Part shown: in pieces, positions 11,726 through 36,331 of the stretch
Numbering within the stretch: the first letter of the stretch is position 1
Layout of the letters: the number at the start of each line of letters is the position of its first letter
IMG/VR virus record: IMGVR_UViG_3300044846_003008
Length of the DNA: 64,000 bases
Source: a virus
Direction: 5' to 3' (one strand)
Translations under genes and position numbers: made by a program
Notes under the pieces: generated by a model
Seen by the model: only the letters and a program-made list of their open reading frames with translations
The model's database searches: none
Told to the model about the DNA's origin: nothing

Positions 11726-12379
11726 TTAGTTAATTATTTTTAAATATAAGTTAAGGCCAACATTTAAATATGTGTCAGTCCCGATTAATAAAGCGTCAGT
11801 TATTTGTTGTTCAGGTATTGTTGGTGTTGGTGTTGGTGTTGATGTTGGTGTTGTTGATGGTATTGGTGTTGCACTCACTGATGGTGTTGGTGATGGTGTT
11901 GGTGTGTTACAAGGTTCACAACTTGGACAAGGTGTTGTGGTGGTGGTTGTTGTGTATGGTCCATTAACGCAACAAGGGAATTCTGAAACATAACAAGACT
12001 CGTAATTTAATTCATCAGCAATAAACGATTCTTGGACATATATGTTTAATTTTTCACGTATCGGTAATATCAAAACACCATCATCGGACCTTAACATAAA
12101 TTGACCTTCATATTTACCAACATCCTTAGTGTCTTTAGAATTGAATTGGTAATAGATATAATACTCAGGTTCGGCATTTGGGTCAATAAATGTTTTCTCA
12201 ACAAACCCTGCCGGTCTTGAATTAATCTTAGATAAACCTGTATCAACATTAACCATTGAAAAAAAGATTGATGACAATTCTATGGTTTTCATAAAATTAT
12301 CATAATCACTTCTACCGTCTTTAACTACTTGTAATTTTAATACAGGTAATGTTGCATTTTTTTTAATAAAAAAATCCAT
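11726..12379 (-). CDS. BppU-like Ig-fold virion protein with Thr/Pro-rich tail
   Basis: FFIKKNATLPVLK...YQFNSKDTKDVGKYEGQF pattern, then a Cys cluster and [16 protein letters not shown] tract; TATTTAT motif upstream. Confidence 0.55.
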   Translation of the reverse strand: MDFFIKKNATLPVLKLQVVKDGRSDYDNFMKTIELSSIFFSMVNVDTGLSKINSRPAGFVEKTFIDPNAEPEYYIYYQFNSKDTKDVGKYEGQFMLRSDDGVLILPIREKLNIYVQESFIADELNYESCYVSEFPCCVNGPYTTTTTTTPCPSCEPCNTPTPSPTPSVSATPIPSTTPTSTPTPTPTIPEQQITDALLIGTDTYLNVGLNLYLKIIN

Positions 12380-12411
12380 TTATTATTTTTATTAATAAAT
12401 AGTCTGAAATT

Positions 12412-12442
12412 AAAAAAATAAAGGGGTAATTACTCACCCCTT
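12412..12442 (-). terminator. Intrinsic terminator closing the glycosyltransferase operon
   Basis: AAGGGGT-N8-ACCCCTT stem followed by a U-tract on the minus strand. Confidence 0.65.
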
Positions 12443-14132
12443 AACTTTCTTTTCTTAATTCACGTTCATAATGGTCAAACCTGTTATGCTCTGTTGGTGT
12501 TAATAATAGTAACCCGAATTTTAATTTACCTCTCTTTAATTCTTGAAACATATGGCTCATCCAAGTCTGTTCATATGGGTGTCTCCAAGTTGTTTCTAAA
12601 AACATTTTTTTACTACCACTTTTAGATACTAATTGAGGCCAATTACAATAATAAATCTCACCTGTAACATAAGGGACACCATCATAAATTTTAATATTTT
12701 CGTATTTAACTTTAGGTGCGTTAGGGTCAGTTCCTTGTTCAGGTAACTTTGAATACTCTGGCCAATATTGTTCTCTAACAACTTGAGGGACATTATACCA
12801 AGTCCATTGTGTTGAATTGTCACCAAAGAATTCACTAAAGTTAAGTTTTAAATAATCAAAATTCTCTTGTTTAGCAATCATCATTGATTTATCGTAAAGG
12901 TCGTCAATCATTCGATTAAAACCATTTCTACATACTTCACCTTTTTTAGGGTAAAAGAACATATCGTCCTCAAAAAAATACATATATTCTAAATCGGATT
13001 GTTCAAAATGTTCAGCTATCCATTGTCTTCCGCCACAAATCCCTAAATTATCCTTTTTAATATGTTCAAAACCGTATTTAGAACATAACTCACTATAAAT
13101 TGGTGTTGTGGATAAATCAGTTGAATTATCCAATAGAATCTTTCTTGGCTTTTCAATAAAGTTTTTGTCATATTCAAGCATTGACATTATTAATGTCTCT
13201 AATTGTTTTGGACTATTAAAACCTATCACATAAAGACCAACATTATCTTTGGTTATTTTTGGTATTTGATTAACATTTTTATTTATGAAATTATTATCAT
13301 AATTTTTAAGTTCTTCAAAAAATGGCCATACAAGACCATTACCTTCAATTTCGTATTTATAAATTAAATCAGGAAATTTGTGAGTTAAAATGGTGAATAA
13401 ACATTCATCGGCACCCATATAACCACTTTTTAGTGTATTTTCCAAAATAGAATAATACTGATGATTTAATTGATGGATAACGCTTTTCTCACCACCAAAA
13501 AACCCCCCTCTACAAACATAACGAACGTAATCGGTGTTACAATATTTCGCCATTTCAGTTCTTTCAAATCCGTGTATTTCGGGACTACCTTCATATGGGT
13601 AAGCTAAATGAACATATTTTATATCTTTTTGAGACATAAATTCTGTTAAATTATTTAACACTAAATCTTTTTGGAAATAACCTTTGTTAACCGTATGTGT
13701 TAGACCACCATCAACCCAATAAAAATATTTACTATTAAACGGATTCATAATTGCCGTATCATTTAACATAAACATTTTTGTTAACATCATTGCGTTATAT
13801 GATTCTAACGCGGCTTGTGGTGATTCTCTTAACCATCCAGATTGTGATAACCATTTTTCGTCTTTTCTAATTTTTTGTATTTCATCAAAAAACGGGTTCC
13901 AAGTATTAAAATCTGAGACTTCTTTAATAAAAATCCTTGTTGGTTTATCACCACGGATTCTCTCAACGTCAGACTTTAAATCGGAAGGTATCCAAATACA
14001 CATCTGAACATCAACTTCTAACATTTCAAAAAAACGTTCTTTATAATAACTAAAATCTCTTTTAGCCCAAGATTCTAAATTCCCTCTACCAACATCCCAA
14101 AGACCTGTAACGATTGTAATATCTGTATTCAT
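12441..14132 (-). CDS. HtrL/YibB-like domain fused to a GT-A glycosyltransferase domain
   Basis: ITIVTGLWDVGR...YYKERF...YFYWVDGG...GGFFGG...ADECLF (HtrL-like); C-terminal GICGGRQWIAEHF...FFEDD. Confidence 0.7.
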   Translation of the reverse strand: MNTDITIVTGLWDVGRGNLESWAKRDFSYYKERFFEMLEVDVQMCIWIPSDLKSDVERIRGDKPTRIFIKEVSDFNTWNPFFDEIQKIRKDEKWLSQSGWLRESPQAALESYNAMMLTKMFMLNDTAIMNPFNSKYFYWVDGGLTHTVNKGYFQKDLVLNNLTEFMSQKDIKYVHLAYPYEGSPEIHGFERTEMAKYCNTDYVRYVCRGGFFGGEKSVIHQLNHQYYSILENTLKSGYMGADECLFTILTHKFPDLIYKYEIEGNGLVWPFFEELKNYDNNFINKNVNQIPKITKDNVGLYVIGFNSPKQLETLIMSMLEYDKNFIEKPRKILLDNSTDLSTTPIYSELCSKYGFEHIKKDNLGICGGRQWIAEHFEQSDLEYMYFFEDDMFFYPKKGEVCRNGFNRMIDDLYDKSMMIAKQENFDYLKLNFSEFFGDNSTQWTWYNVPQVVREQYWPEYSKLPEQGTDPNAPKVKYENIKIYDGVPYVTGEIYYCNWPQLVSKSGSKKMFLETTWRHPYEQTWMSHMFQELKRGKLKFGLLLLTPTEHNRFDHYERELRKES

Positions 14133-14141
14133 ATAAATTTA

Positions 14142-14747
14142 TTATTGTTTAATTTTACAAGCCCAAACAACTTGTCTAAAGTCATCTTCCATATATGGAA
14201 TTAAATTATTTCGGAGACTAGGCTCATTAATATCATTATCTTGAATTTCCAACCAATTCCAAATTTTATTATTAATATGTTCTTGGAAATATTCTTCATT
14301 CGGTGCATAGTCGTGAGCCATAATGACATCACCAACTTTTAAATAATCTGATAGAATTCTAAATTCGTTTTTCTTACTACCACCATCACATAACACTAAT
14401 GTTACTCCTTCTGATGTTATAATATCAATAACTTCTTGACCATTTTCTAAATTATCGTATTGATTGTTAAAAACGTTTTCAACTTTTAATTCAATTTTTG
14501 AACCTTCATCAACATATCGTCTTAAATAAACAGGTTCATTAACATCATAACTGATTAACCTAGTTGACTCCAATCCATTTTTATCTAAAATGTCACGTAT
14601 TAATAAAGTTAACCCACCGGATGATGTACCTATTTCTAAAACTTTAATCGGTTTTAACTCTGTTATTAGTTTTGTAAATTTTTCTTCAATTGAAGTGTGT
14701 TGCATTGTCATTAAATCTCGGTAGATAAAATATCCTGAAATACTCAT
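14142..14747 (-). CDS. Class I SAM-dependent methyltransferase (CmcI / Methyltransf_24-like)
   Basis: VLEIGTSSGG, ISYD, LCDGG and LKVGDVIMAHD. Confidence 0.8.
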   Translation of the reverse strand: MSISGYFIYRDLMTMQHTSIEEKFTKLITELKPIKVLEIGTSSGGLTLLIRDILDKNGLESTRLISYDVNEPVYLRRYVDEGSKIELKVENVFNNQYDNLENGQEVIDIITSEGVTLVLCDGGSKKNEFRILSDYLKVGDVIMAHDYAPNEEYFQEHINNKIWNWLEIQDNDINEPSLRNNLIPYMEDDFRQVVWACKIKQ

Positions 14748-14748
14748 T

Positions 14749-15483
14749 TTATATTTTTTTAATTAGGTTTAGTGAGAAACTTGAATTGTCGTGAATTAAG
14801 TATGGCTCAGTATTAAATTTAGTTTTTATTTTTTTATTTTCAATCGTATAATATGAATCATCTAACATTGCCGTCGAAAAAAAATAATCACAATTCTTAT
14901 CAGTGTTTAATTCTTTAATTTTAAGATGATAATATTGCCAAACACCTTGGTCGTCCCAAAAGTCAATATTGGTAGTTAAACAAATATTTTCTAATTCCTT
15001 AATTAGTTCATAAAAAGTATTTGTTTTAGAAATTATTGCTCCGGAGTTCAGATAAAAAAATTCTTTTTCATCCATTGGTTCACCCATCCATTTAGACACT
15101 TCGTGAATATATGGCCAACAATTTTTTTCGGTCGAAACCACAATATCTTCACCTGACTGAATAAATTTATCAATCATATCGTTAGAACTTCTACTAAATT
15201 TAGTATCACTAAAATCAATATGTGTTAGATATTCATATTTACCTAAAATGTTTTCCTCAATAAATTTTCTTAGAAGAAAAATTTTCCCATAAACTAAATC
15301 TTTACGACCTGTAATTCCAATATTTGGGATTTCTTCCATATTGAAAGGGTCAAATTTATTTGAAAAGTTAACATAAATGTCCTCCACATCACCATCAAAA
15401 TTAAACTTACTTTTTAAGTGTTCTTGTGAAATTTCGTGACAACCATTACAATAGTATGTGGTAATTACTGAGTGTTTTTTCAT
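14749..15483 (-). CDS. PLOD/LH3-type glycosyltransferase domain protein
   Basis: HIDFSD, IVVSTEKNCWP, YLNSGAII, WDDQGVW and PYLIHDN match the GT domain of procollagen lysyl hydroxylases. Confidence 0.72.
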   Translation of the reverse strand: MKKHSVITTYYCNGCHEISQEHLKSKFNFDGDVEDIYVNFSNKFDPFNMEEIPNIGITGRKDLVYGKIFLLRKFIEENILGKYEYLTHIDFSDTKFSRSSNDMIDKFIQSGEDIVVSTEKNCWPYIHEVSKWMGEPMDEKEFFYLNSGAIISKTNTFYELIKELENICLTTNIDFWDDQGVWQYYHLKIKELNTDKNCDYFFSTAMLDDSYYTIENKKIKTKFNTEPYLIHDNSSFSLNLIKKI

Positions 15484-16157
15484 ATATTTGTTTTTTTCAT
15501 AAAATGATAATCACCATCAGGACCATTATTAGTAAAAAAGGATACTAATTCAAACCCCAACGATTCAATAAATTTAATGGATTCGACATTTAACGGTGCT
15601 CCAATATTATATTGACTATGTTGTAACTCAATAATTAAATGTTTGCAAGTTTTTAATGTTTCTGTCATACCTTTTAGAATATCGACTTCACATCCTTGGA
15701 CATCAATCTTTATTAAATCAGGTAATTTAAATTTTTTATCTTTAACCACAGTATCTACTGTGATTGTTTTTACAATTCGTTCACTATCTTTACCAAAATA
15801 TAAATCAGTTGCCCAACTATATTCTTTATAATATGAGTTACCGCCAGGACTTTCATTACTTTGGTAAAAAATTAACTCTTTATTATCTACATCACTTAAC
15901 ACACCTAAATGATATTCAAAACCAACCTCATCATATAAAAACCCAACAGAATCCATACCGTCAAAAAGGTAGTATGTTGAATTAGGCCAAATTTTTAAAG
16001 ATTCTTTAGTCCAATGTAATACACAAGCACCAATATCGTAAATTACCTCCGGTTCAAAATTAAATTCTTCTTTTAATTTTTTTAAGTATAAAATATGACT
16101 ATCAGGTATTGGTGACATATTTGATAAATTTTTTAAATTGTTTTTTACATTTTCCAT
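15480..16157 (-). CDS. FkbM-family methyltransferase
   Basis: IYDIGA, TITVDTV, PDLIKIDVQGCEVDILKG. Confidence 0.88.
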   Translation of the reverse strand: MENVKNNLKNLSNMSPIPDSHILYLKKLKEEFNFEPEVIYDIGACVLHWTKESLKIWPNSTYYLFDGMDSVGFLYDEVGFEYHLGVLSDVDNKELIFYQSNESPGGNSYYKEYSWATDLYFGKDSERIVKTITVDTVVKDKKFKLPDLIKIDVQGCEVDILKGMTETLKTCKHLIIELQHSQYNIGAPLNVESIKFIESLGFELVSFFTNNGPDGDYHFMKKTNI

Positions 16158-16159
16158 AA

Positions 16160-16897
16160 TTAGATTAAATTAAACCCTTCAATAATTCTTGGACTACCAT
16201 AATTCCATCCATTATCGTGAACAAACATTGGGGTAGTGTTAGTTAATTTATGTTTTAACATACCATTTTCATTTTCAAACCAATTTCTTGATGTTAGATA
16301 TGTACTTAAAAAATGTTGACACGTTTCATCTAATTCTATATTAGGTGAGAGATTATTAATAAAATAATAAGTATAAACTCCTTGGTCGCCTCCAAAATTT
16401 TTATAATTTAGAGGTAATACCGATTCAATAGATTTATCTAATAATTTAAGATATAATTCTTTAGTTGTTACTATAAGACCTGAATTCAAATAAATATTGT
16501 TATTTATATTCCACTCAGGGTAAGATGATATTGGACCCCAAGATGAATTATCATTTGGGTATTTATTTTTTTCTGATGAAAAAATTATACCATCATTATA
16601 TTTTAATTCATTAATATTGTCTAGACAAACAACATCATTGGTGTCACAATAAACAATAAGATTATCATCAATTTCAATTAATTTATCCTTGAATAATTTT
16701 ATCTTATAAAGAATAAATTCAAATTGATATCCATAATTGTTTTCAAATTCTTTTTCCAATTCAACATAATCATTTCGGTTGAAGTGTATGTTGATAAAAT
16801 CATTTTCATTATTTTTTTTAATAAACGACTTATATAGTATAGTGTTTTTATAATCAAAATGTGGGTCATAAGACCAAGTAACAGAAACTAACTTCAT
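16160..16897 (-). CDS. PLOD/LH3-type glycosyltransferase domain protein (paralog of 14749-15483)
   Basis: YCDTNDVV, IIFSSEKNKYP, YLNSGLIV, GGDQGVY and PMFVHDNG. Confidence 0.75.
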   Translation of the reverse strand: MKLVSVTWSYDPHFDYKNTILYKSFIKKNNENDFINIHFNRNDYVELEKEFENNYGYQFEFILYKIKLFKDKLIEIDDNLIVYCDTNDVVCLDNINELKYNDGIIFSSEKNKYPNDNSSWGPISSYPEWNINNNIYLNSGLIVTTKELYLKLLDKSIESVLPLNYKNFGGDQGVYTYYFINNLSPNIELDETCQHFLSTYLTSRNWFENENGMLKHKLTNTTPMFVHDNGWNYGSPRIIEGFNLI

Positions 16898-17610
16898 TCT
16901 TGTTCGTCTTTTGGGTATCCTTGTGTTATATATTCTTCATAATTTACATCAAAGAACCATAAATCACTATATGATGAATATTGTGTGGTTAATCCGAATT
17001 TATAACACATTGCTTTATATATTGTCGGTAAAACATCTAATGGTTGGTCTAAATTATAATAATCATACTTATCAGGATGAGTTACAACATCAACACCATA
17101 AGGTGCTAATGATAATAATTCATCGGGAGTTACGGGTTGACCAAAGAAATTAGTTTCACTAAAATTATCAATAATGAATTTACAAAAATCACGTTTAATT
17201 AAATATGATTGTGCGTAAGATACTGACGAAACTTGTAAGCAGTTATTTTTAACTTTAATTGGGTTTCGTCTATTTCTACAACCTAACCAAAACACGTCCC
17301 ATTCAGTGTTGTTAATATCATTAAAGATTTTATTACCATCCTCTTTTAATACATCTAAAAACAAGCAATCATCTTCTAATATTAATAATGTTTCAAAATC
17401 GGTTTCTAATAATTTTTCCATTAATTGTAGGTGACTTCGTTTACAATTTAAGGTGTTAGAATCATACCCCGAAAACGCGGAATGTCTCTCAACTCCCGAA
17501 ATATTGAAATCTATTAACTGAGACTCAATTTTTTCTTTCCTATCTTCACGTTTATCAAGATTTATATAAAAACCTATATCCGCAATTTTTATATCATTAA
17601 ATTTAACCAT
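16894..17610 (-). CDS. Glycosyltransferase family 25
   Basis: FYINLDKREDR, CKRSH, LILEDD and WDVFWLG. Confidence 0.85.
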   Translation of the reverse strand: MVKFNDIKIADIGFYINLDKREDRKEKIESQLIDFNISGVERHSAFSGYDSNTLNCKRSHLQLMEKLLETDFETLLILEDDCLFLDVLKEDGNKIFNDINNTEWDVFWLGCRNRRNPIKVKNNCLQVSSVSYAQSYLIKRDFCKFIIDNFSETNFFGQPVTPDELLSLAPYGVDVVTHPDKYDYYNLDQPLDVLPTIYKAMCYKFGLTTQYSSYSDLWFFDVNYEEYITQGYPKDEQE

Positions 17611-17615
17611 CTTTT

Positions 17616-18863
17616 TTACAAATTACCTGTTATTCTATCACCCCAACCTTTGGATTGACTATGTGGCCATACTACCCAATATTTTGGTTTGAGTGTTGTT
17701 TGGAACTCTCTCCATACTTTACAATATCCTTCAGGGTCATTCTTCATTCTATTTATTTCGTGAACGTCAGCGTCTTGTCTGTGAATTGTTTCATCATTTT
17801 CATCGTGAAAAGCGACAACCCAAAAGTCGTAATCATTTTCAGGGACTGAATCAAAACCAATATCAATACAATGTTTGAATATTGACGCGTAACTATTTAA
17901 CCATTCTTCCTCTGTTTCAAAAATTTGTGGGTTTGGTGGGTAATTTTTATCTAAAGTGTATTGTTGTACCGCTCTTTTTGAAAATAACAAACCTGAATAA
18001 ATTTCATACTCTTTTAATGTACGTTCAGTTCCGAAACCATAGATACCAAAATCTAATGTGACTTCTTCACCATCCATACCAAATAATTGTCTATTTTTAG
18101 AATGTGAAATGGTGTTTTTAGTCCCCCAATCTTTATCGTCATCCCATTGTTTTGTTCTACCTTTACGAGTATATTCGTGCCAAATCACAACTTTATGTGG
18201 GTGGAATAAATCATATCCGTGAGTATATGCTCTTGCCGCGATTGAGATTTCTTCTCCGTGGAAATAAAACTCAGGGTCGTGTTGAACTTCAGTACTGAAT
18301 TGACCAACACTGAATGCGAAATGTGCTGAATAAAATCTTGATGTTACAGGTTCTTTCAATTTCTCCCACCCAGGTATTGTTTCAGGTAAAAAGAATACGG
18401 CACCTTCAGGGATGAATCGGTCAAACACCATTCTCCAAGGTTCTCTAATACGTTCTGCCGGGTCATTCTCAGGGTTAAATGATGATACATAACCTGTTAA
18501 TAATGGTTTTGGGAAACCTTTCTTTTGTAATTGTTTAATCATTTTGATTAAAGTATCGTCCCAATCTTTTTCAAATCTCATATGAGAATCAATTTGTAAG
18601 GTATACTCTTCACCATCATATAATTGTTGTACTTGATTTCTCGCCCAACAAACACCTTTAGAATCTGAATATAAAACATCTAAAATTCTAAAACGTTTAT
18701 CTTTACGATAATCATCTAATGTGTCAAACCCATCTTCAGGATGGTATTGACGACAAATTCCAATTCTAAGGTTATTTGGTTTTTTCGCGTTAGTAATCAT
18801 ATCCTTAACCGTTTTTTCTAATTCGGGGTCACGATATGATGCAATTTGTACAAATATTTTCAT
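17616..18863 (-). CDS. GT60-family polypeptide/hydroxyproline N-acetylglucosaminyltransferase
   Basis: IFVQIASYRDPEL, SKGVCWARN, LQIDSHMRF..DWD, FHGEEISIAARAYTHGYDLFHP and FGTERTL..YE. Confidence 0.88.
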   Translation of the reverse strand: MKIFVQIASYRDPELEKTVKDMITNAKKPNNLRIGICRQYHPEDGFDTLDDYRKDKRFRILDVLYSDSKGVCWARNQVQQLYDGEEYTLQIDSHMRFEKDWDDTLIKMIKQLQKKGFPKPLLTGYVSSFNPENDPAERIREPWRMVFDRFIPEGAVFFLPETIPGWEKLKEPVTSRFYSAHFAFSVGQFSTEVQHDPEFYFHGEEISIAARAYTHGYDLFHPHKVVIWHEYTRKGRTKQWDDDKDWGTKNTISHSKNRQLFGMDGEEVTLDFGIYGFGTERTLKEYEIYSGLLFSKRAVQQYTLDKNYPPNPQIFETEEEWLNSYASIFKHCIDIGFDSVPENDYDFWVVAFHDENDETIHRQDADVHEINRMKNDPEGYCKVWREFQTTLKPKYWVVWPHSQSKGWGDRITGNL

Positions 18864-18952
18864 AAATTATTAGTTTTAATAATAATAAAGATTTATGAAA
18901 ATAAATAAAGTTGATTAATTAGAAAAATTATTCTCTATTCGTATAGTGGACC

Positions 18953-21900: not shown

Positions 21901-24900
21901 TCCAAGAATTAAATCCTGTTGTTTGACTAATAAATGGTGTCCTATTAGTTGGTAATGACATTGCGAAAACTTGACCTGTACAACAACTAGCCACGGCAAA
22001 TAATGAATATGGTGTTGTTGGTGTCGGTGTCGGTGTTTTTGTCGGTGTTTTAGTTGGTGTGTTAGTTGGTGTTTTTGTTGGTGTTACGGTTGGTGTTTTT
22101 GTTGGTGTTGGTGTTTTTGTTGGTGTTGGTGTAACATTGACAGGACCAACATTATATACGTACCCTTCTAAGTTACAAAGGATTGGTTGTGGTGTTTTAG
22201 TTGGTGTCGGTGTCAGTGTTTTTGTCGGTGTATTAGTTGGTGTTTTTGTTGGTGTTGGTGTATTAGTTGGTGTTTTTGTTGGCGTATTAGTTGGTGTTAC
22301 GGTTGGAGTAACAGTTTTTGTTGGCGTATTAGTTGGTGTCGGTGTTGGACAAATAAATGATGTTGATTTTACCAATATAGTACCTGAAGAATCTTTAACC
22401 GCCACCCAATAAGTTGTTCCAAAAATTGAAACTCCGTAACCTATACTTGAAGTAGTAATCCAATTAGTGTTAGTTAATGCCTGAATTTGTGTTAAAAACA
22501 CTGATGCTCCCACTTGATATGGTGGAAAACCACCAACAATGTTGTTTAAACTCACTGTTGCGGTAGTCCCATTACACGAGGATGTTACGGTAAAATTAAG
22601 TGGTGGTCTTGTATTCGTTGGAGTATTGGTTGGTGTTGTCGTTTTTGTTGGTGTCACGGTTGGTGTCACGGTTGGGGTAGGAGTTTTAGTTGACGTTGGT
22701 GTTGGGGTTGGTGTAGGACAAGGATTTGTGATTAAACAAGAGTTACAGTTAAAATCCCCTCCAACAGGTGGAAACGCAGGTTTTGTATTATCCCAAATAA
22801 TTGTTGTTGGTAATGAAACGGGTGTAAGTATTTTATAACATTTACCATTAGTCGCGATTAAAACATAGTTTGTGTTTACGTATGGTGTTGGTACATTAAT
22901 TACTTCATAGGTTGGTGATGAAATTGGGTCACAACAAGCAATTGCGTATGCGGATGAGTAAAAAGTTGTTTGTGTTGGGGTATTAGTTGGTGTTTTAGTT
23001 GGGGTATTAGTTGGGGTATTAGTTGGTGATTTAGTTGGGGTATTGGTTGGTGTTACAGTTCTTGTTGGGGTATTAGTAGGCGTATTTGTTGGTGTTTTTG
23101 TTGGTGTGTTAGTTGGGGTTACTGTTCTAGTTGGGGTATTCGTAGGTGTATTTGTCGGGGTGTTCGTAGGGGTATTCGTAGGTGTATTTGTTGGGGTTAC
23201 AGTTCTAGTTGGGGTATTCGTAGGTGTTTTTGTTGGAGTGTTAGTCGGAGTATTGGTCGGAGTATTGGTCGGAGTAACAGTTCTTGTTGGTGTATTCGTA
23301 GGCGTTTTTGTTGGAGTGTTAGTCGGAGTATTGGTCGGAGTATTAGTCGGAGTAACAGTTCTTGTTGGGGTATTTGTAGGAGTGTTGGTAGGTGTTTTCG
23401 TAGGTGTATTTGTAGGTGTGTTGGTCGGGGTTTGAGTGTTAGATGGAGTGTTGGTTGGCGTGTTCGTAGGGGTTTTAGTTGGTGTCACAGTACTTGTTGG
23501 CGTGTTCGTAGGGGTTTTAGTTGGGGTATTTGTTGGAGTATTAGTTGGTGTATTTGTCGGTGTCTGTGTTATAGTTGGTGTGTTAGTTGGGGTATTTGTT
23601 GGGGTATTTGTTGGGGTTTTAGTTGGTGTGTTAGTTGGTGTAACGGTTCTTGTTGGGGTATTCGTAGGGGTTTGAGTTCTTGTGTTCGTTGGTGTGTTTG
23701 TTGGTGTATTTGTCGGAGTTTGAGTTCTTGTTGGTGTGTTCGTTGGGGTTAGAGTACTAGTCGGTGTGTTAGTAGGCGTTTCAGGTGGTGTTGAACCGGG
23801 TGTTCTTGTTGGTGTTGGGGTTTGAGTTCTTGTTGGTGTATTAGTCGGAGTGTTAGTAGGTGTATTAGTCGGAGTGTTAGTAGGTGTATTCGTAGGTGTA
23901 TTCGTAGGTGTATTAGTTGGTGTATTAGTCGGAGTTACAGTTCTTGTTGGTGTATTCGTAGGGGTGTTCGTCGGAGTATTTGTTGGGGTATTCGTCGGAG
24001 TGTTCGTCGGAGTTACTGTTCTTGTTGGTGTGTTCGTTGGTGTGTTTGTTGGTGTATTTGTAGGTGTGTTAGTAGGTGTATTAGTTGGCGTTACAGTTCT
24101 TGTTGGTGTATTTGTTGGGGTATTAGTTGGTGTATTTGTTGGGGTTACGGTTCTTGTTGGTGTATTCGTAGGTGTATTTGTCGGTGTATTCGTTGGTGTA
24201 TTTGTTGGGGTTACGGTTCTTGTTGGGGTGTTTGTTGGTGTATTTGTTGGTGTATTTGTGGGCGTATTAGTTGGGGTAACAGTACTTGTAGGTGTGTTAG
24301 TTGGGGTATTAGTTGGTGTGTTAGTTGGCGTGTTAGTTGGTGTGTTTGTTGGGGTATTAGTCGGAGTGTTTGTTGGTGTGTTAGTCGGAGTGTTAGTTGG
24401 TGTGTTAGTCGGAGTGTTCGTAGGTGTATTAGTAGGTGTATTAGTAGGTGTTACGGTTGGAGTTTGAGTTCTTGTTGATGTGTTAGTTGGAGTATTCGTA
24501 GGTGTGTTAGTAGGTGTGTTAGTTGGGGTATTCGTAGGTGTTTTTGTTGGTGTATTTGTCGGAGTATTAGTTGGTGTTTGAGTTCTTGTTGATGTGTTAG
24601 TTGGTGTATTTGTCGGGGTTGGTGTCAGTGTACTTGTCGGGGTTGGTGTTGGGGTTGGACAAGGGTTTGTTGATAAACAAGATGAACAATCAAATTCACC
24701 TCCAACAGGTGGGTATACTGGCTGAGTATCGTCCCATACAATTGTTGCTGGAATTGTTGTGATTGTAAGTACTTTATAACATTTACCATTAGTTGCAACT
24801 ACAACATAATTAGAATCAACACCCGCATATAACAATGGAACCCTAATTACTTCGTATATAGGTGATATGTCACAACAAGCGATAGCATATGCTAATGTGA

Positions 24901-27469
24901 ATGGTGTTGTTGAGGTTGGTGTTTGTGTTGGGGTTTTTGTCGGGGTATTAGTAGGGGTGTTTGTTGGTGTATTAGTAGGTGTGTTTGTTGGTGTATTAGT
25001 AGGTGTGTTAGTCGGTGTTTTTGTCGGTGTTACTGTTCTTGTTGGTGTGTTGGTTGGTGTTTGAGTTTGTGTTCTTGTATTAGTCGGTGTATTTGTTGGT
25101 GTTTTTGTTGGTGTTGGAGTTGACGTTGGCGTTGGTGTTGGGCAAATAAATCCACCTTGATTACATTGGAGACAACCACTAGTCGAATTATCGTTATAAA
25201 AATAGATATTAACGTTATTCCATACTTTAGTTGCCGGACCAAAAGGGGTATTTGGACTAATGTCATAACATTGTCCTAAAGTATCTACTACAGTCCAAGA
25301 ACTAAACCCGTTTATTGGGTCAAAATATGGTGTATAGATAGTCGGTAATGACATTACAAACTGAGACCCACTACAACAATTAATAACAACAAATAATGAA
25401 TGTGGCGTTGTTGGTGTTGGGGTATTAGTAGGGGTGTTAGTTGGGGTTACAGTACTAGTTGGGGTTACAGTACTAGTTGGTGTTTTTGTTGGCGTATTTG
25501 TTGGTGTGTTAGTAGGGGTGTTAGTAGGGGTATTAGTTGGGGTGTTAGTCGGAGTATTTGTCGGTGTTACGGTTCTTGTGTTAGTTGGAGTGTTAGTTGG
25601 AGTGTTAGTTGGAGTGTTAGTCGGTGTATTTGTTGGGGTATTAGTTGGTGTTACAGTTCTAGTTGGGGTTACAGTTCTAGTTGGGGTGTTCGTAGGAGTA
25701 TTCGTAGGGGTATTCGTAGGTGTATTTGTAGGTGTGTTAGTTGGCGTATTCGTAGGAGTGTTAGTCGGAGTATTGGTCGGAGTATTAGTCGGGGTATTAG
25801 TTGGTGTTACAGTTTTTGTTGGTGTATTTGTTGGAGTGTTAGTTGGGGTATTCGTAGGTGTGTTAGTTGGAGTATTTGTTGGTGTTACTGTTCTTGTGTT
25901 TGTTGGTGTGTTAGTAGGTGTGTTGGTCGGGGTATTAGTTGGTGTTACAGTTCTTGTTGGAGTATTTGTCGGGGTGTTAGTTGGAGTGTTAGTTGGTGTG
26001 TTGGTTGGTGTTACAGTTCTTGTTGGAGTATTTGTTGGAGTATTTGTTGGAGTATTTGTTGGGGTATTTGTTGGTGTTACAGTTCTAGTTGGGGTGTTTG
26101 TCGGTGTGTTTGTTGGCGTGTTAGTTGGTGTGTTAGTCGGGGTAACAGTTCTTGTTGCGGTATTCGTTGGAGTATTAGTCGGAGTATTCGTTGGAGTATT
26201 AGTCGGAGTATTAGTCGGAGTATTAGTTGGTGTATTTGTTGGTGTATTGGTTGGCGTATTTGTTGGTGTATTGGTTGGCGTATTTGTTGGTGTATTAGTC
26301 GGAGTATTTGTTGGGGTGTTAGTTGGAGTTTCAGTTGGAGTATTCGTAGGGGTATTCGTAGGTGTATTTGTCGGTGTATTTGTCGGTGTTTTTGTTGGCG
26401 TATTAGTCGGAGTATTTGTTGGAGTATTTGTCGGTGTATTAGTTGGGGTTTCTGTCGGAGTATTCGTAGGGGTATTCGTAGGTGTGTTAGTAGGAGTTTC
26501 TGTTGGCGTATTTGTTGGGGTATTCGTAGGTGTGTTAGTGGGAGTTTCTGTTGGAGTTGAAGTTGACGTTTTAGTCGGAGTATTTGTGGGTGTGTTAGTT
26601 GGAGTTTCTGTTGGTGTATTTGTTGGTGTATTTGTTGGTGTTGATGTTTGGGTACTGGTAGGTGTTTGAGTTTGAGTTTTAGTGGGCGTTGGTGTGGGTG
26701 TTGGGCACGTATAAATTGGATTAAATGTGAAACAAGTTGCACAATCAACCATTGAGCCCATTGAAATGTGTTGGTAAATATTTGTTGACGTTGTTGAAGG
26801 TATTGATTCAGCACAACCAACAAACCCATTTGTTGATATGAAATAACTTCCGGATAATGGATAAAAACTATAAGGTATCTTAGAAATTGTGAATTCATTA
26901 TAAGGTGAACAACAATTTCTAAACTTACCAACAATTGGTGGTAATGTTGGTGTTGGCGTTGGGGTTGGGGTTTGAGTTGGTGTTGGTGTTGGGCAACCAT
27001 TAGCGTCGCACCTTACTGAATAAACTACAGTTCCGGGCTCATCAATCGTGACGTTATATCCGCAGAAATATAAGATGGTGTTTGGTAAAATTTGTGAAGA
27101 AATTTCGGTCCCATTACATAATGTTAAACTATAATTTAAATTTTCACTTTTTGGGTTGATAATTGAAATACAACGACATTTAGCGGGTGTGCTGGTCGGT
27201 GTACTAGTCGGTGTTAATGTTGGTGTCGGTGTTGGTGTTATGTCACAAGGTAACAATAACATTTCTTCACAATTATTAGCGTCCGTTGCGATAACTAAAA
27301 CCTCACCAAATAATTCGATACCTCCAAATTCAGGAACTTGGAGAGTTAACGTTGGAGGCACGGAAACAACACCTGTAATAACCTTACTACAATAAGTTCT
27401 TGTCTTATCGCAGATTATTATCTCATAAGGTGAATGACCCGTTAAACTTGTTATCTGAACTACACTCAT
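18953..27469 (-). CDS. Giant mucin-like virion protein (2838 aa): Cys-rich modules separated by TPTN repeats, a P-domain and a C-terminal LamG/ConA-like domain
   Basis: Uninterrupted ORF. P-domain [17 protein letters not shown]...[10 protein letters not shown] (~20600-21060); Lam[11 protein letters not shown]...VEAWVKP...WVHLVGVW...YINGV...FRVYNRELS (~18953-19620); TATTTAT motif 9 nt upstream. Confidence 0.85.
22970..24660 (-). repeat. 12-nt-period coding tandem repeat (T-P-T-N)n with RTVT/TQT interruptions
   Basis: + strand GTNGGNGTRTTN units with variable third positions. Confidence 0.95.
25405..26705 (-). repeat. 12-nt-period coding tandem repeat (T-P-T-N)n
   Basis: Same unit as 22970-24660; shorter tracts at about 21105-21240, 21655-21750, 22010-22350, 22610-22720 and 24905-25143. 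Confidence 0.95.
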
Positions 27470-27562
27470 TATTTAAACATAAATACCATTTATATTTGTT
27501 ATTTTTTAATACATTTATAAAAAATAACTGATAATTTTTAAAATTAAATGAACAATCTAATC

Positions 27563-28627
27563 TTAAAGAGATGCACAAGGTACATTGTTAAATAATTGAC
27601 AAACTGACGATTCTAAAAATGAGGTAATTTCTTCATTTGAAAATGTTGGTGATAACCCGTTATATCTTGAAAGTAGTACTAAACCTAAGTAAATACTATG
27701 TCCTGTAACTATCACAGAATTCGTCATTAATTGCGGATTATCAGTATTTCGATTATCATCAACCCCTCTAATATCTGACCCCCATAATGTGCTAGTTACG
27801 GTAAACCACACATAAACAATACTTGGTGTTTCAGGCGAGTGGTTAGTGTAACTATACCAATTACCATTAATATCACCACAAGTGTAAGTTCCGTTATCTA
27901 ATTCTTCAGTTCTATCACCACTACCCGGAGCTCCAAAAGCACCGATACCGATAGTGTCTACAGTACTACCAAATCTGGTCATAGTTAACTGAGGCCAAAC
28001 GTTTTGTTTGGTAACAAAATAATAAGAACCAATTGTTCCGTAAGTGATTGGAATTGGACTATCAATCAATATTCTATTACCATTATCGAACATATCAAAT
28101 CCACCGTCTTGGATGTAATTAGTTGAAGGTATAAAGTTATATAGGTATTCAAACGTCATTGCAGAATACGGGACATATGAATTTAATTTCCACCAATTAG
28201 ACATTTGGGTTAAACAAGATACGGGAGTAACACTTGGGGTAAGTGTTGGGGTAGGTGTGTTAGTTGGTGTTGTCGTTGGTGTATTTGTTGGTGTTGGGGT
28301 AGGTGTTATTAAACAAGGGTTAGGTGTTATTGTTGGTGTATTTGTTGGTGTTGGGGTTGGCGTGTTAGTTGGTGTTGTGGTTAATGTTGGTGTTGGTGTC
28401 GGTGTCGGTCTTTGAACATTTAAAAAATTAGGACAATCCGAACCTGACACTAATATAGTGTAGGACCCGTAAACATCACGAGGTGGGGTTAAGATTGATG
28501 GGTCGAACGTGTAAGGTAAAATAACTTCACCTAAATTTATGGTTGTATTAACATTGTCAGGTTTAAACAAAACATTTGCTTGTTCTCCATCGTAATTTAT
28601 ACTTGATATTATAATTGATTTACTCAT
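27563..28627 (-). CDS. Putative virion protein with Thr/Pro linker
   Basis: N-terminal beta domain, a ~60-aa [10 protein letters not shown] tract and a C-terminal globular domain; coupled to the upstream gene. Confidence 0.65.
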   Translation of the reverse strand: MSKSIIISSINYDGEQANVLFKPDNVNTTINLGEVILPYTFDPSILTPPRDVYGSYTILVSGSDCPNFLNVQRPTPTPTPTLTTTPTNTPTPTPTNTPTITPNPCLITPTPTPTNTPTTTPTNTPTPTLTPSVTPVSCLTQMSNWWKLNSYVPYSAMTFEYLYNFIPSTNYIQDGGFDMFDNGNRILIDSPIPITYGTIGSYYFVTKQNVWPQLTMTRFGSTVDTIGIGAFGAPGSGDRTEELDNGTYTCGDINGNWYSYTNHSPETPSIVYVWFTVTSTLWGSDIRGVDDNRNTDNPQLMTNSVIVTGHSIYLGLVLLSRYNGLSPTFSNEEITSFLESSVCQLFNNVPCASL

Positions 28628-28631
28628 CTTA

Positions 28632-31565
28632 TTAAAAATTATTTTCCACGGCTAAACAAATTTCGCCATTCATTGATATTAGTCGAGACATATCACTAAA
28701 TGAAATGTATACGTGACCTTGTTTACCCCAATTTTGTCCCCAACTATTTTTAATTCTAAATAATTGTCTTGTTTTATCAACACCGTTAATTACGTATGCG
28801 TGACCACCAACAATACCACCTGTTGCTCTAATTAAACCATTCTTATCTGGATAGAACATTCCTGAGAACCAATATGTCCCAACAACTACGGGGCCTAAAT
28901 TAAACACGGTATTTATTAATGTATTAACATCGTAACCCCAATAATATGATTTAATTGCGTTTATTGATTTTAAATATTTAGCACCCGCTCTAACTGATGT
29001 TCCGTTATAATTTTCTCCCGGCCATTCATCTATTTTTTGGGACTCACTATAAATTAATTGAGGGTTAATGATTGGGGGAATTCCTCCGTGTTCCACAGGA
29101 CCGTCTTCAATCCAATGAGACCAAGCATAACCAACACATTGTGGTGTTGACCCTTGATTACCCCACCATCCGTCAGGATTCCAATACTTACTAAGATTCT
29201 GAGGTGTTGGGGTTGGTGTTGGGGTTCGAGTTGGGGTTCGAGTTGGTGTTGGTGTTGGTCGTTTTGATGAACTTGGGGTCGGTATAGGTCGTCTTGTTTT
29301 ACTTGGTGTTGGCGTTCTTCTATATCTAGTAACAACAGGTCGATTAACGACACTCATTAAATAATCGTAATTGTTGTTTATTAGATAATTTTTATCTCTG
29401 TCGTCAGGAATATATAAACGACCTAATAAATTTGCGTCAGGTTTTATTTCTATTGGAATCTCCGGAAGATTACCATCAATAATTTCATAAGTGAAATCAT
29501 CAATTTTACAAACATCGGTTGAACAATCAGGACAATCAGGGTTAAACATTCTAAATGTGTTTTTTAACACATTAAAATTATGTTTAACTTCAGGAGCAGA
29601 CATTGGGGTAACATACATTCTAAATTGTGATACACCACCTTCAAATGTTCCTGCGAAATATTTGTCAAGAATTATATTAGTATTTAACTGACTAAATGTT
29701 GTTCCGCTTAAATTAAAATCCGATAAACATTCAGGGTCTTGAATATATGGTCCATTAGGTAACGTTGTTGATGAGAAAATTAAATGTTCTCTTAACCCTT
29801 GTGTACCACCACCCCAAGAAATATTGAATGGGACTCCGACTTGTTTTTCTTTATCGGTATTTAACCCTCTTGGTATTATTTCTTCGAAGTCTTCTATAGT
29901 GTGAAAAATCTTACCATTAACATAAAGTTTTAATCGACCTTTTCGATATGCTTTTTCGATTAACCATTTTTCATTTAAATTAACTAAATCAATTTGTTCT
30001 GCCGGTGTGGAACCTGTGTGGGTGTATTCAACGTTTACTAAAGAAATTGAGTTATTCGATAGTGATTGTAAATACGATTTTGTGGTTATTTCACCTAAAC
30101 CACCTTTATAGTACAAATCACAATAATCAAACCAAGTATAACGTTCCCAAACCGCATTTAATTGGAACCAATGTTCTTCTTCTAACCACGCAGGGTTTTC
30201 AGTTTGACATCTAGGGTATATCGGGTCGGTGCAATAATTATCAATAGTAAATCCTGTAACATAAGTTGTACCTGTTTCCGAGCAAGAAGATAAGATATCG
30301 TCAGGAGAAACCTGACTATTATCTAATAATGAAACGGTTACACAATTACCGGTAATTCTTAAAACTCTAACACCGATTTGTGGGTTTTTAGGGTCCCCAC
30401 ATAATTTAAATGACAATGCGTTTGACATTGAATCAAATAATGGGTCAGTCTCACAAGTATTCTCAACTGATGAGGTATACCCCGTACCACATATGTGTTT
30501 TTGGCATTCCCAACCACAAGTATCGTATTCGGTTGGGGTACAACCACAACTCGTACATCCTGTAATAATAGTTGAACCTGTTGTTGGTGTACTACATCCG
30601 CAGATATCGCAACCATAATTAACGTGAGAATCGTGAATATTATTAAATGACCTTGGAGGGTAAACATACACACAACGACTATTGGTAACCCCCGTGTTAC
30701 AACAAGCACAAGTTTCTAATTTATTTTGTAATTCGCTCGTAACTCTAGTATAACCCGTTAATGAAATTGGGGAACCATCGGCGTGGTGGTAGAATTTATT
30801 TTCAGCTCTACTACCTATATAAAAAAATGTGTTTTTATTTTCAGGGTAAAGTACATTTAATGTTGTTTCGTCAGAATCGGGAAAATATTCGTCAACTAAT
30901 CTTGGTTTTAGTAACATTTCAACCGACCAACCTTTATTCATTCGTTCAGGAAATATTTCGTAATCATAACCAAATAGTTTGTAAAAACCTTGGTAAAAAC
31001 CACCATATAATTCGTGGTATCGACCTTCATAAGGACTATATTTACTAACAACTTCATATAATATGGTTTTATCAAAACCTGAGAAACTGATGTTTGGGGT
31101 GCTAGTGTGACCTGTCACTTGAAACATCTTTAATCGTCTATCAAAATATAAACGATTGAACTTTAATGAATCGTCGAATAATCCATTAGTGAATGTAATG
31201 GTTTGACCTGTTAATGAATCAACAAGTCCGTTATCCATACCTGTTAGTCCGATATCACACGATGTTGACCCTGAGTAACAAGACAAATCTTCATTATCTT
31301 TATTGTAATAATTTAATGAAACGATAACGTTATCTTCGTTGTATTCTTTGTAATTTAATATTTGATTTTGAACTGATAAGGTATTATTAATATCTAATGA
31401 AAATGGTAATCTATTACCATATGTTTGGGCAATTAAATAAGGTGAAAATACCACTTCTTCATTATAATCCCTTTCGTCATTAGACAAAGACATATCTTGG
31501 GAATCTAAATTCAATTTAATCCCCCAATTTGGTTTACCGTATTGATTAATATTTTGACCTGACAT
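28632..31565 (-). CDS. LamG-like Cys-rich protein with Thr/Pro linker and C-terminal papain-like (C1) cysteine protease
   Basis: NQGSTPQCVGYA, GGHAYVING and IKNSWGQNWG give the Q/C/H/N catalytic set; split LamG motifs WSVEMLLKP, LKLYVNGK and GGVSQFRMY. Confidence 0.82.
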   Translation of the reverse strand: MSGQNINQYGKPNWGIKLNLDSQDMSLSNDERDYNEEVVFSPYLIAQTYGNRLPFSLDINNTLSVQNQILNYKEYNEDNVIVSLNYYNKDNEDLSCYSGSTSCDIGLTGMDNGLVDSLTGQTITFTNGLFDDSLKFNRLYFDRRLKMFQVTGHTSTPNISFSGFDKTILYEVVSKYSPYEGRYHELYGGFYQGFYKLFGYDYEIFPERMNKGWSVEMLLKPRLVDEYFPDSDETTLNVLYPENKNTFFYIGSRAENKFYHHADGSPISLTGYTRVTSELQNKLETCACCNTGVTNSRCVYVYPPRSFNNIHDSHVNYGCDICGCSTPTTGSTIITGCTSCGCTPTEYDTCGWECQKHICGTGYTSSVENTCETDPLFDSMSNALSFKLCGDPKNPQIGVRVLRITGNCVTVSLLDNSQVSPDDILSSCSETGTTYVTGFTIDNYCTDPIYPRCQTENPAWLEEEHWFQLNAVWERYTWFDYCDLYYKGGLGEITTKSYLQSLSNNSISLVNVEYTHTGSTPAEQIDLVNLNEKWLIEKAYRKGRLKLYVNGKIFHTIEDFEEIIPRGLNTDKEKQVGVPFNISWGGGTQGLREHLIFSSTTLPNGPYIQDPECLSDFNLSGTTFSQLNTNIILDKYFAGTFEGGVSQFRMYVTPMSAPEVKHNFNVLKNTFRMFNPDCPDCSTDVCKIDDFTYEIIDGNLPEIPIEIKPDANLLGRLYIPDDRDKNYLINNNYDYLMSVVNRPVVTRYRRTPTPSKTRRPIPTPSSSKRPTPTPTRTPTRTPTPTPTPQNLSKYWNPDGWWGNQGSTPQCVGYAWSHWIEDGPVEHGGIPPIINPQLIYSESQKIDEWPGENYNGTSVRAGAKYLKSINAIKSYYWGYDVNTLINTVFNLGPVVVGTYWFSGMFYPDKNGLIRATGGIVGGHAYVINGVDKTRQLFRIKNSWGQNWGKQGHVYISFSDMSRLISMNGEICLAVENNF

Positions 31566-35594: not shown

Positions 35595-35596
35595 AA

Positions 35597-36331
35597 ATGA
35601 TAAAAATACCTTTAACTAAGATATTATTCTTAGACATTGAAACTGTAGGAATTGAAAAAGATTACGACAGTTGTCTTGAAAAAAGACCTGAAATTGCTAA
35701 TCAGTTTATGAAGTATTACGATTGGTTTCAGAAACGATTTCCTGAAGACCATATTAACCCACCAAACAATATTGATGAAAGGGAGAAAAGGATTAATGTG
35801 GTTTTTAGTAAAAGAACCGCATTAGTTCCTGAGTTTGCTAAAATTGTTTGTGTTAACGTTCAGTTCGTTATGGATAATGGTGAGATTAAATCACAATCAT
35901 TTTCGGGTGACGATGAAAAAAAATTATTACGTGATTGTAAAAAAGTTTTAGACAAATGTTATAGATTGGATTTCCATATCTGTGGTCACAACTTAAAGAA
36001 TTTTGACATTCCGATGTTGGCTAAGAGAATGATAATCAATGGTATTGCACCATCATCTATGTTACCATCATATGACACTAAACCTTGGGAAGTTAAAGCG
36101 ATTGATACTAAAGATGTTTGGCAATATGGTGCTTATAGTTCAATTGGGTCATTAGATTTATTATGTGCTTCGTTAGGAGTTCCATCGCCAAAAGAAGGTG
36201 ATGTGACGGGTGATAAAGTTCATACGGCATATTGGGATGAAGGTAGATTAAAAGAAATAACAGAATATTGTGAACGCGATGTTCGAGTATTAATTGATAT
36301 AATAATAAAATTAAAAGAATTAGAACAATGA
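35597..36331 (+). CDS. DEDD 3'-5' exonuclease (PolB-exonuclease-like)
   Basis: FLDIET, GHNLKNFDIP and YCERDV. Confidence 0.88.
   Translation: MIKIPLTKILFLDIETVGIEKDYDSCLEKRPEIANQFMKYYDWFQKRFPEDHINPPNNIDEREKRINVVFSKRTALVPEFAKIVCVNVQFVMDNGEIKSQSFSGDDEKKLLRDCKKVLDKCYRLDFHICGHNLKNFDIPMLAKRMIINGIAPSSMLPSYDTKPWEVKAIDTKDVWQYGAYSSIGSLDLLCASLGVPSPKEGDVTGDKVHTAYWDEGRLKEITEYCERDVRVLIDIIIKLKELEQ

Follow-up and report, generated by a model that had tools for sequence, protein, structure and literature searches.

Can a tailed phage glycosylate its own fibre-like proteins in the manner of a eukaryotic mucin? The question is raised by positions 11726–31565 of a 64-kb stretch of viral DNA (IMG/VR record IMGVR_UViG_3300044846_003008), which was analysed as a whole and is referred to here as the window. 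Four minus-strand genes that code for long threonine- and proline-rich (PT) tracts are arranged there around a compact operon of seven predicted enzymes, glycosyltransferases (GTs) and methyltransferases, the first of which belongs to family GT60. Judged by its gene content, the window is part of a large T4-like tailed phage. We consider it reasonably probable that the GT60 enzyme attaches sugar to the Thr tracts of fibre-like proteins encoded by the same phage, which would make the locus a candidate cytoplasmic mucin-type O-glycosylation module.

The GT60 enzyme and its predicted fold

The first gene of the operon (17616–18863, minus strand) encodes a protein of 415 residues, which matches the GT60 profile PF11397 at 1.9e-71 (241.8 bits, cut-off 21) and phrog_24687 at 1.6e-163. 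The characterised members of GT60 are polypeptide α-N-acetylglucosamine (GlcNAc) transferases that, in Dictyostelium and Trypanosoma cruzi, place the first sugar of mucin-type O-glycans on Thr, and the T. cruzi enzyme was assayed on KPPTTTTTTTTKPP (PMC3769586, PMC8724618). An alignment of 39 GT60 homologues at 36–50% identity to the phage protein shows D92-x-H94 and H229 to be invariant. These residues we take to be the DxH...H metal site of GT27 and GT60.

Since PDB sequence searches with the GT60 protein and profile gave no match, the fold was compared on a predicted model (AlphaFold2 (AF2), pLDDT 95.2). The model consists of a GT-A catalytic domain (residues ~1–327) followed by a separate, β-rich domain of about 85 residues (~333–415). 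The top Foldseek matches are all polypeptide N-acetylgalactosamine (GalNAc) transferases (ppGalNAc-Ts; E ~4e-10), and VIA-align reports 29 ppGalNAc-T entries at Z 19.5–22.6 (~270 residues, rmsd ~3.5 Å, identity 11–15%), whereas other GT-A enzymes, of generic GT2 type, score 17 or less and TarP 15.5. On the predicted model, the catalytic fold is closest to that of the mucin-type polypeptide GalNAc-transferases; fold and profile match both agree with the original prediction that this gene is a GT60, and we regard the enzyme as a candidate initiating polypeptide N-acetylhexosamine (HexNAc) transferase. The extra β-rich domain matched no Pfam domain and was scarcely covered by the structural searches. 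The absence of a C-terminal ricin-type lectin domain distinguishes GT60 from GT27 (PMC8724618). A prolyl 4-hydroxylase (PF13640) was found neither in the window nor in any of four related records, one of them 100% complete, in a search in which the control genomes matched; Thr is therefore a likelier acceptor than hydroxyproline.

The family is abundant, with more than 7,500 proteins retrieved by protein search and 320 IMG/VR contigs. Its representatives (P0125–P0137) include proteins of 1,088–2,461 residues with up to four tandem GT60 domains. On a metagenome contig of 46% GC (L088, 14–3117), two GT60 genes flank PqqD and ScmC, a context resembling that of ribosomally synthesized and post-translationally modified peptides, and this arrangement suggests glycosylated peptides as the products.

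The Thr/Pro-tract proteins and the operon between them

With a criterion based on 20-residue windows applied to the genes of the window, Thr/Pro tracts are confined to four minus-strand genes, all of which flank the enzyme operon. Reading frames and tracts lie where they had been predicted, and there is no fifth such gene. The largest encodes a giant of 2838 residues (18953–27469), which has a beads-on-a-string organization: a 72-residue N-terminal domain, Cys-rich modules, PT tracts and a lectin end. Thr and Pro make up 29% and 15% of the protein. The PT tracts, single ones being 25–573 residues long, amount to 1399 residues with 663 threonines, and are built of 183 TPTN units together with the RTVT and PTVT units that had been noted previously (24 and 8 copies). 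Between the tracts lie about ten small five-cysteine modules, with two duplicated pairs at 63% identity. According to Pfam, the C-terminal 712 residues comprise a P-domain-like region (P_proprotein, 3.2e-6) and a LamG/ConA-like lectin domain (Laminin_G_3, 8.8e-27). The N-terminal domain is conserved, with homologues in 49 of the 80 related loci that were compared (GT60 75–89% identical).

The second protein, PT217 (11726–12379, minus strand), lies on the other side of the operon and is the most widely retained of the four (71/80 relatives). An Ig-like, BppU-N-like anchor domain of ~120 residues is followed by the Cys motif SCYVSEFPCC, a poly-Thr/PT tract containing GPYTTTTTTTPCP and a short C-terminal motif. 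Among its homologues the tract is hypervariable, yet the Thr content persists while that of Pro does not, some tracts being poly-Thr blocks with few prolines. That Thr-richness is conserved and Pro is not would be expected of an acceptor region more than of a linker stiffened by Pro. The two remaining genes are located on the far side of the giant. PT354, a 354-residue protein (27563–28627, minus strand; homologues in 20/80 loci, no Pfam family match), has a PT tract of ~80 residues (63–143) between N- and C-terminal domains. The 977-residue protein (28632–31565, minus strand; homologues in 22/80) has a large N-terminal region and a C-terminal papain-type (C1) peptidase domain (Pfam Peptidase_C1, 4e-5; phrog_16701 peptidase, 1.3e-50), tethered behind a Pro/Thr/Arg tract at ~750–799. 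At the DNA level, a (PT)4-coding pattern gives up to 59 forward matches per genome and 0–1 for the reversed pattern, many more repeats than chance would produce. Just behind the PT tracts there is a recurring short acidic motif (window 11726–11800, minus strand; L003:14700–15000; L224:5806–6093; L068:7633–8325). It reads LINPILIGxDxYLxVGxNEYLxF at the end of PT217 homologues, is repeated as DDRILEDGEGRITEDGQCRIVEP in ORF325 of the cultured jumbo phage XacN1, and appears elsewhere as YLLQEDGFxI or ILTENGDFLI; it may be a docking or strand-exchange motif.

Are these proteins part of the virion, as had been proposed? The AF2 model of the PT217 N-terminal domain is an Ig-like sandwich. It matches BppU-N, minor-tail, tail-fibre, tailspike and baseplate proteins in BFVD, and phage baseplate chains (9m8o_P, 8hqz_T) are among its PDB structure matches; a location of PT217 on the virion is thus supported by the predicted, BppU-like anchor fold. 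The giant may be weakly placed there by its LamG region, which matches phrog_8510 'virion structural protein' at 7e-16. Apart from this region, PHROGs gave the PT proteins no structural role beyond low-complexity matches, and the proposal found no support for PT354 or the 977-residue protein. Display on the virion is further suggested by likeness to XacN1, where a PT-tract giant sits after the baseplate wedge genes. Purified XacN1 virions contain at least two periodic-acid-Schiff (PAS)-positive glycoprotein bands, which were ascribed to the two GTs of the phage (PMC5852040, Fig. S4). One of the two is a GT60 homologue, and by analogy this is a hint of a link between the XacN1 glycoproteins and a GT60 system.

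The seven enzyme genes are packed at spacings from a 4-nt overlap to a 9-nt gap. The operon starts tightly behind the giant, as had been stated, at a measured distance from its stop codon of 89 rather than 90 nt, and each gene scores above the Pfam gathering threshold for the family named in the original prediction. GT60 is followed, all on the minus strand, by a GT25-like glycosyltransferase (16894–17610; PF01755, 1.7e-8), a PLOD-type GT-domain protein (16160–16897; PF25342, 8.8e-14), an FkbM-family methyltransferase (15480–16157; PF05050, 8e-15; TIGR01444, 1.3e-14), a second PLOD-type GT-domain protein (14749–15483; PF25342, 2.3e-9), an S-adenosylmethionine (SAM)-dependent methyltransferase (14142–14747; Methyltransf_24, PF13578, 4.3e-6, marginal at 28 bits against a cut-off of 26.3) and, as the last gene, a 563-residue fusion of an HtrL/YibB-like and a GT2-like part (12441–14132; PF09612, 5.5e-19). 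For this fusion, Pfam confirms HtrL_YibB, in the N-terminal half only; the GT-A half that had been predicted is seen only as an Atlas structure match of residues 295–563 to GT2 clusters (TM 0.63). NCBIfam added only FkbM and sub-threshold YibB matches.

The notion of a dedicated seven-gene operon did not survive the comparison with relatives. Only GT60 and the HtrL fusion (73/80) are conserved, and the five genes between them, in operon order found in 8, 1, 3, 4 and 21 of the 80 relatives, are one version of a hypervariable cassette. The stretch from GT60 to the HtrL fusion varies from 1.0 to 7.0 kb, and 59 gene clusters occur in it among 73 relatives, including GT10-type fucosyltransferases, a GT7-like galactosyltransferase, GT2s, a carbamoyltransferase, FkbM and FtsJ-type methyltransferases and an epimerase-like gene. 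Read from these alignments, the architecture is that of a conserved putative initiator and a conserved closing enzyme, bracketing a serotype-like variable cassette. Two jumbo phages in culture, XacN1 and RAS14, have the same GT60...HtrL-fusion bracket, as does a TARA contig of marine origin, with the HtrL fusion aligning over its full length at 40% identity. Neither transmembrane segments (maximum KD19 1.47, below the usual threshold) nor signal peptides occur in any of the seven enzymes or in the PT proteins, in keeping with the cytoplasmic enzyme set that had been envisaged, and a Pfam scan of the operon found no priming transferase, flippase, polymerase or exporter. The lack of membrane segments and of lipid-carrier machinery speaks against a pathway for surface polysaccharides, and is consistent with a soluble substrate being modified directly.

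A promoter-like TATTTAT heptamer is located on the coding (minus) strand at 18901–18907, 44 nt upstream of the GT60 start. It is shared with structural genes, as had been claimed: it precedes the T4-type large terminase (TerL), two more genes of the structural region, the giant, the 977-residue protein, GT60 and PT217. Among the 22 window genes with upstream gaps of at least 35 nt, 11 have it at 11–44 nt upstream, TerL being one of them, and it is kept 42–51 nt upstream of GT60 in 30/57 distinct relatives. Late co-expression of the operon with the structural genes is plausible. The T4 late-promoter consensus TATAAATA was rejected as the local promoter motif in favour of TATTTAT, since it shows no enrichment, with 11 occurrences against 13 expected. 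At the other end, the predicted terminator was located as a hairpin with a 9-bp stem and a T-run (12421–12442, minus strand), which overlaps the stop codon of the HtrL-fusion gene.

The window also carries hallmark genes of the phage: a Gp23-type capsid protein (52489–54291), which has no Thr/Pro tract, a Gp20-type portal, TerL and a family-B DNA polymerase (PolB). The IMG/VR relatives reach 270–322 kb at 91–100% completeness, and the phage therefore belongs to a jumbo-phage lineage. The capsid protein has its closest cultured matches, at 35–42% identity, in Flavobacterium phage immuto and Microcystis phage Mel-JY01, together with uncultured huge phages. The nearest 'bacterial' matches of GT60 (57–73% identity; loci L303–L313) are contigs of metagenome-assembled genomes (MAGs) binned as Saprospiraceae, Lewinellaceae, Cytophagaceae or Chitinophagia, and this binning hints at a Bacteroidota host. 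One of them, a Lewinellaceae contig of 610 kb and 62% GC (L308), looks chromosomal; its GT60 is 61% identical, with a PT-tract open reading frame (ORF) two genes off, and could be a clue to the host or a case of gene exchange. Elsewhere in the window, a 512-residue protein (4851–6389, plus strand) has complete Fe/Mn superoxide dismutase domains in residues 1–226 and an unannotated C-terminal half.

Association of GT60 with Thr/Pro tracts, and other possible substrates

If the tracts are the substrate, GT60 and PT genes should travel together, and synteny and co-occurrence were both proposed at the outset as checks. Within the clade of the window, synteny is conserved: a same-strand PT-tract ORF lies upstream of GT60 in 61/61 loci having at least 3 kb of upstream sequence, in 54 of them within 400 nt, and the encoded protein varies in length from 175 to more than 3300 residues. 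Divergent GT60 genes show related arrangements. In XacN1 and RAS14 (45–48% identity), PT-tract giants lie beside baseplate genes within ~10 kb, and three further lineages have a PT neighbour (L087, 45%; L224, 42%; L223, 25%), which in L087 is a PT/PS protein next to an S74 fibre. Co-occurrence across large phages is likewise seen at the genome level. DNA coding for (PT)4 is present in 11–12 of 15 GT60-bearing records and in 0/5 GT60-lacking large phages of 160–595 kb (one-sided Fisher p = 0.004–0.008, in a small sample uncorrected for phylogeny). Xanthomonas phage XbC2, which lacks GT60 and shares its host genus with XacN1, has no (PT)4-coding DNA. Starting from (TP)8 DNA in IMG/VR instead, GT60 was found in 9 of 46 arbitrarily sampled PT-tract viral records. 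Two candidates were discarded in this survey. The seed P0149 gave no confirmed locus in the viral-contig scan, and the apparent PT neighbour of a divergent GT60 in G014 proved to be a (VG)n repeat read on the wrong strand, the fibre gene that contains it being on the minus strand. At this locus (L222:8304–11540; G014 is an IMG/VR record of 108 kb, complete), the 735-residue fibre-like protein combines long (VG)n repeats with a C-terminus of Hint/intein type, and its immediate neighbour downstream is a divergent GT60-like gene.

A number of observations weigh against modification of the tracts by the operon. GT60 is absent from 12/14 near-complete PT-bearing phages, so PT tracts can be plain linkers. 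In complete relatives the PT genes are scattered over six or more regions, which makes their adjacency to GT60 weaker evidence than it looks. Around bacterial and MAG GT60 genes, a PT ORF lies within 6 kb in 20/53 loci, a figure without a measured base rate. G057, a GT60-bearing record that is 74% complete, contains no PT DNA. There is also a sister clade (GT60 57–69% identical), whose GT60...HtrL operon is surrounded by small, non-structural genes; of its 33 loci, 22 lack a PT ORF within a distance of 10 kb. In the most complete sister-clade genome (70%) the PT tracts lie at distances of at least 70 kb, and two partial ones (39–54% complete) have no PT DNA. Operon and PT proteins, whose independent inheritance had been named as a refutation, are in this clade carried independently at the level of the locus, but not clearly so genome-wide. 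As to timing, TATTTAT also precedes non-structural genes. The replication module adjoins the operon as well, with PolB 1–8 kb downstream, a placement known for DNA-modifying GTs too. Finally, the PAS-positive bands of XacN1 were not assigned to proteins (PMC5852040). Overall, the presence of GT60 is a much better predictor of PT tracts than the reverse. This is the pattern expected if GT60 needs the tracts while the tracts also serve as linkers, but it is not proof.

Because of the sister clade, the most serious alternative is that the operon glycosylates different proteins of phage or host, for instance folded fibre domains or envelope and cytoplasmic proteins of the host, with the PT tracts as bare spacers that are by chance frequent in the fibre genes of this lineage. 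This would account for an operon retained without PT genes nearby, for the 12/14 PT-bearing phages that lack GT60 and for the dispersal of PT genes over the genomes, and would suit both the GT60-like gene that directly follows a (VG)n fibre protein free of PT tracts in G014 and the GT60 pair around PqqD/ScmC in L088, which points to other peptide substrates. We nevertheless judge it unlikely. The characterised GT60 enzymes work on Thr-rich mucin-like peptides, PT tracts are strongly enriched in GT60-bearing records compared with GT60-lacking large phages, synteny is invariant in the 61 loci of the window clade, and Thr-richness, not Pro, is the feature of the tracts that is conserved.

It is improbable that the operon instead serves to build or modify a glycoconjugate of the infected cell that is not a protein (the core of lipopolysaccharide (LPS) or lipooligosaccharide, a capsule, another surface glycan or a small molecule), a change that might block superinfection or remodel the cell surface before lysis. 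As described above, the operon contains no membrane enzyme, priming phosphoglycosyltransferase, flippase, polymerase or export gene; the fold of the initiating enzyme is, in the predicted model, specifically ppGalNAc-T-like, every characterised GT60 member modifies polypeptides, and the phage is of the large, T4-like lytic type rather than a seroconverting temperate phage. These points must be set against the Pfam descriptions, in which HtrL/YibB and GT25 are named after LPS-core loci, the JGI label 'glycosyltransferase involved in cell wall biosynthesis' on many homologues, a cassette that differs among strains like a serotype locus, and the wide occurrence of bacterial GT60 homologues, mostly without a PT neighbour.

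Hypermodification of the phage DNA, with the GTs building a complex methylated glycan on hydroxymethyl-pyrimidines against restriction, is very improbable: phage GT-A and GT-B enzymes do build diverse glycans on 5-hydroxymethylcytosine and 5-hydroxymethyluracil, often near DNA polymerase and replication genes (bioRxiv 10.1101/2023.12.21.572611), T4-like phages classically glucosylate their own DNA, the operon is 1–8 kb from PolB, relatives carry a thymidylate-synthase-family protein and a second GT block lies among dUTPase, PolB-exo and PhoH genes, but no 5mYOX/TET, C5-methyltransferase (C5-MT) or hydroxymethylase adjoins the operon in the window, the ThyA-like gene of the relatives scores as a genuine thymidylate synthase (E ~1e-84) ~180 kb from GT60, the known DNA-modifying GT-A enzymes resemble JGT and TarP (the GT60 model has Z 15.5 with TarP and ~22 with the ppGalNAc-Ts), and GT60 occurs 0 times in that preprint. 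A Tet_JBP search gave no match, with its control silent as well. The thymidylate-synthase-family protein has an unusually long frame of 413–424 residues (G002:C1:253155–254405; G003:C1:210755–211972), and the match is split in G001. The second GT-rich block of the window (34377–44070, plus strand) is situated among nucleotide-metabolism genes and encodes a GT1-like protein (weak), PolB-exo, dUTPase/DCD, a SAM methyltransferase, a GT8-like protein (weak), a 502-residue GT2_5+GT2 fusion, PhoH, another GT1-like protein (weak) and a GT2; its products might elongate the same glycans or have DNA as their substrate.

Returning to glycosylation of the phage's own Thr tracts, the pathway may be pictured as follows. 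During synthesis of the fibre-like proteins in the host cytoplasm, the soluble GT60 would place a HexNAc, most likely α-GlcNAc from UDP-GlcNAc, on Thr of the Thr/Pro and poly-Thr tracts. The conserved HtrL/GT2 fusion would add the next sugar or sugars, and the strain-variable cassette, in the window the GT25, two PLOD-type GTs and two methyltransferases, would finish the glycan. The glycans would then differ from one phage strain to the next, on stalks that are long, extended and resistant to proteases and that bear the lectin, peptidase and Cys-rich modules. What we infer from the genes and the predicted fold is which residue is the acceptor (Thr in the PT tracts), which sugar is donated and in what order the steps follow, as well as expression late in infection and exposure on the virion. 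The original proposal went further, and its initiate, extend and methyl-cap order, the mechanics of a bottle-brush and the use of the glycans as bait would be conceivable extensions of this pathway.

Comparison with known glycosylation systems

Full-text literature searches (GT60 with phage; phage virion O-glycosylation) returned no description of such a module. A 2025 paper on large freshwater 'moraphages' reports four core GT families whose targets are unknown, and does not mention threonine tracts (PMC12619734). Since virus-encoded glycosylation of a virus's own particle proteins is already known, what we propose as notable is the combination of a eukaryote-type mucin initiator in the bacterial cytoplasm with a swappable tailoring cassette. 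Experimental evidence for virion glycosylation by phage-encoded enzymes has so far come from a few mycobacteriophages and the unassigned bands of XacN1. A wider generalization, to which we would give somewhat less than an even chance, is that large aquatic jumbo phages, and those of plant pathogens, possess a mucin pathway of eukaryotic kind that operates in the bacterial cytoplasm, and in which a GT60 initiator, a conserved HtrL/GT2 extender and a swappable cassette produce a strain-specific glycocalyx on hundreds of threonines, on fibres of up to ~3,000 residues. Phage particles would then come in variable 'glycotypes', shaping adsorption, protease resistance and recognition by hosts or grazers. 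If the module works as proposed, mucin-type O-glycosylation, hitherto held to be a process of the eukaryotic secretory pathway, would also take place in the cytoplasm of bacteria, and would be common throughout a group of large, uncultured phages that is itself abundant. It would give a role to the many 'orphan' glycosyltransferases found in jumbo phages, and would define a hypervariable glycan cassette akin to the serotype loci of bacteria. Glyco-engineering would obtain a polypeptide HexNAc-transferase that is soluble, can be expressed in bacteria and comes with repeat substrates of its own.

Two classes of known loci differ from the operon in what they contain. Wzx/Wzy- or ABC-type surface polysaccharide and O-antigen loci have the membrane priming transferase, flippase/polymerase or exporter that the operon lacks, and phage clusters for glycan hypermodification of DNA combine GTs with 5mYOX, ThyS or C5-MT, whereas no hydroxymethyl-pyrimidine-forming enzyme is adjacent in the window. 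Giant viruses, which infect eukaryotes, have eukaryote-like GT25, PLOD-type and FkbM methyltransferase genes in clusters; their linkages and initiating enzymes are unlike those of the phage, the glycans being N-linked in PBCV-1 and of polysaccharide type on mimivirus fibrils. They resemble the proposed system in that glycosylation of the virion surface, as on the chlorovirus PBCV-1 capsid and the mimivirus fibrils, is virus-encoded and independent of the host (partly PMC5852040).

A mucin-type system is marked by acceptor domains dense in Thr, Ser and Pro whose genes accompany one for an initiating polypeptide HexNAc-transferase, and at the level of genes the window shows this trait. The GT27 ppGalNAc-Ts (GalNAc-T1, T2, T4, T10) are the best structural match and likewise have a catalytic domain with a C-terminal accessory domain. 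Identity is only 11–15%, however, no ricin-type lectin domain was identified in the phage GT60, and its donor is probably UDP-GlcNAc rather than UDP-GalNAc, as inferred from the family. With the protist GT60 pathways (Dictyostelium Gnt2/modB; T. cruzi TcOGNT-2), the phage enzyme has in common the family (PF11397) and a DxH-type metal motif, and the systems share Thr-rich, Pro-flanked acceptors, KPPT8KPP compared with GPYTTTTTTTPCP and (TPTN)n in the phage, and a strain-variable extension of the core sugar. In contrast to the protist enzymes, the phage GT60 is encoded by a tailed phage, carries the extra C-terminal β-domain and is soluble, with the bacterial cytoplasm rather than the Golgi lumen as its putative site of action; its presumed substrates are fibre-like proteins instead of GPI-anchored or secreted mucins. 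Hydroxyproline-directed GT60 enzymes of the Gnt1/Skp1 type, and plant-like hydroxyproline-O-glycosylation, differ further in their prolyl 4-hydroxylase partner, which was found neither in the four relatives nor in the window.

Among phages, the mycobacteriophages Che8, Corndog and others have glycans on the C-termini of capsid and tail-tube subunits, and the likeness lies in phage-encoded GTs acting in the cytoplasm, where structural proteins of the phage itself receive their glycans ahead of assembly (Freeman et al. 2023, Cell Host Microbe 31:1216, as cited in PMC12619734). Compared with these systems as cited there, the enzyme family (GT60) and the hosts differ, and the capsid protein of the window has no Thr/Pro tract, the candidate acceptors being kilobase-scale repeat tracts in fibre-like proteins; this comparison covers the window, and the tail tube lies outside it. 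XacN1 (ORF334–ORF330 next to ORF325; PMC5852040) differs in its gammaproteobacterial host and in the extent of its PT tracts, ~45 residues against 1399 in the window; its authors did not identify the glycoproteins and drew no link between GT60 and PT tracts (Yoshikawa et al. 2018, PMC5852040). It shares a GT60 of 47.6% identity (ORF334), a full-length HtrL-fusion homologue (ORF330, 40%), a cassette with a carbamoyltransferase as in some relatives, a PT-tract giant beside baseplate genes and PAS-positive virion glycoproteins. With the GT60...HtrL-fusion bracket present in cultured XacN1 and RAS14, the idea is directly testable.

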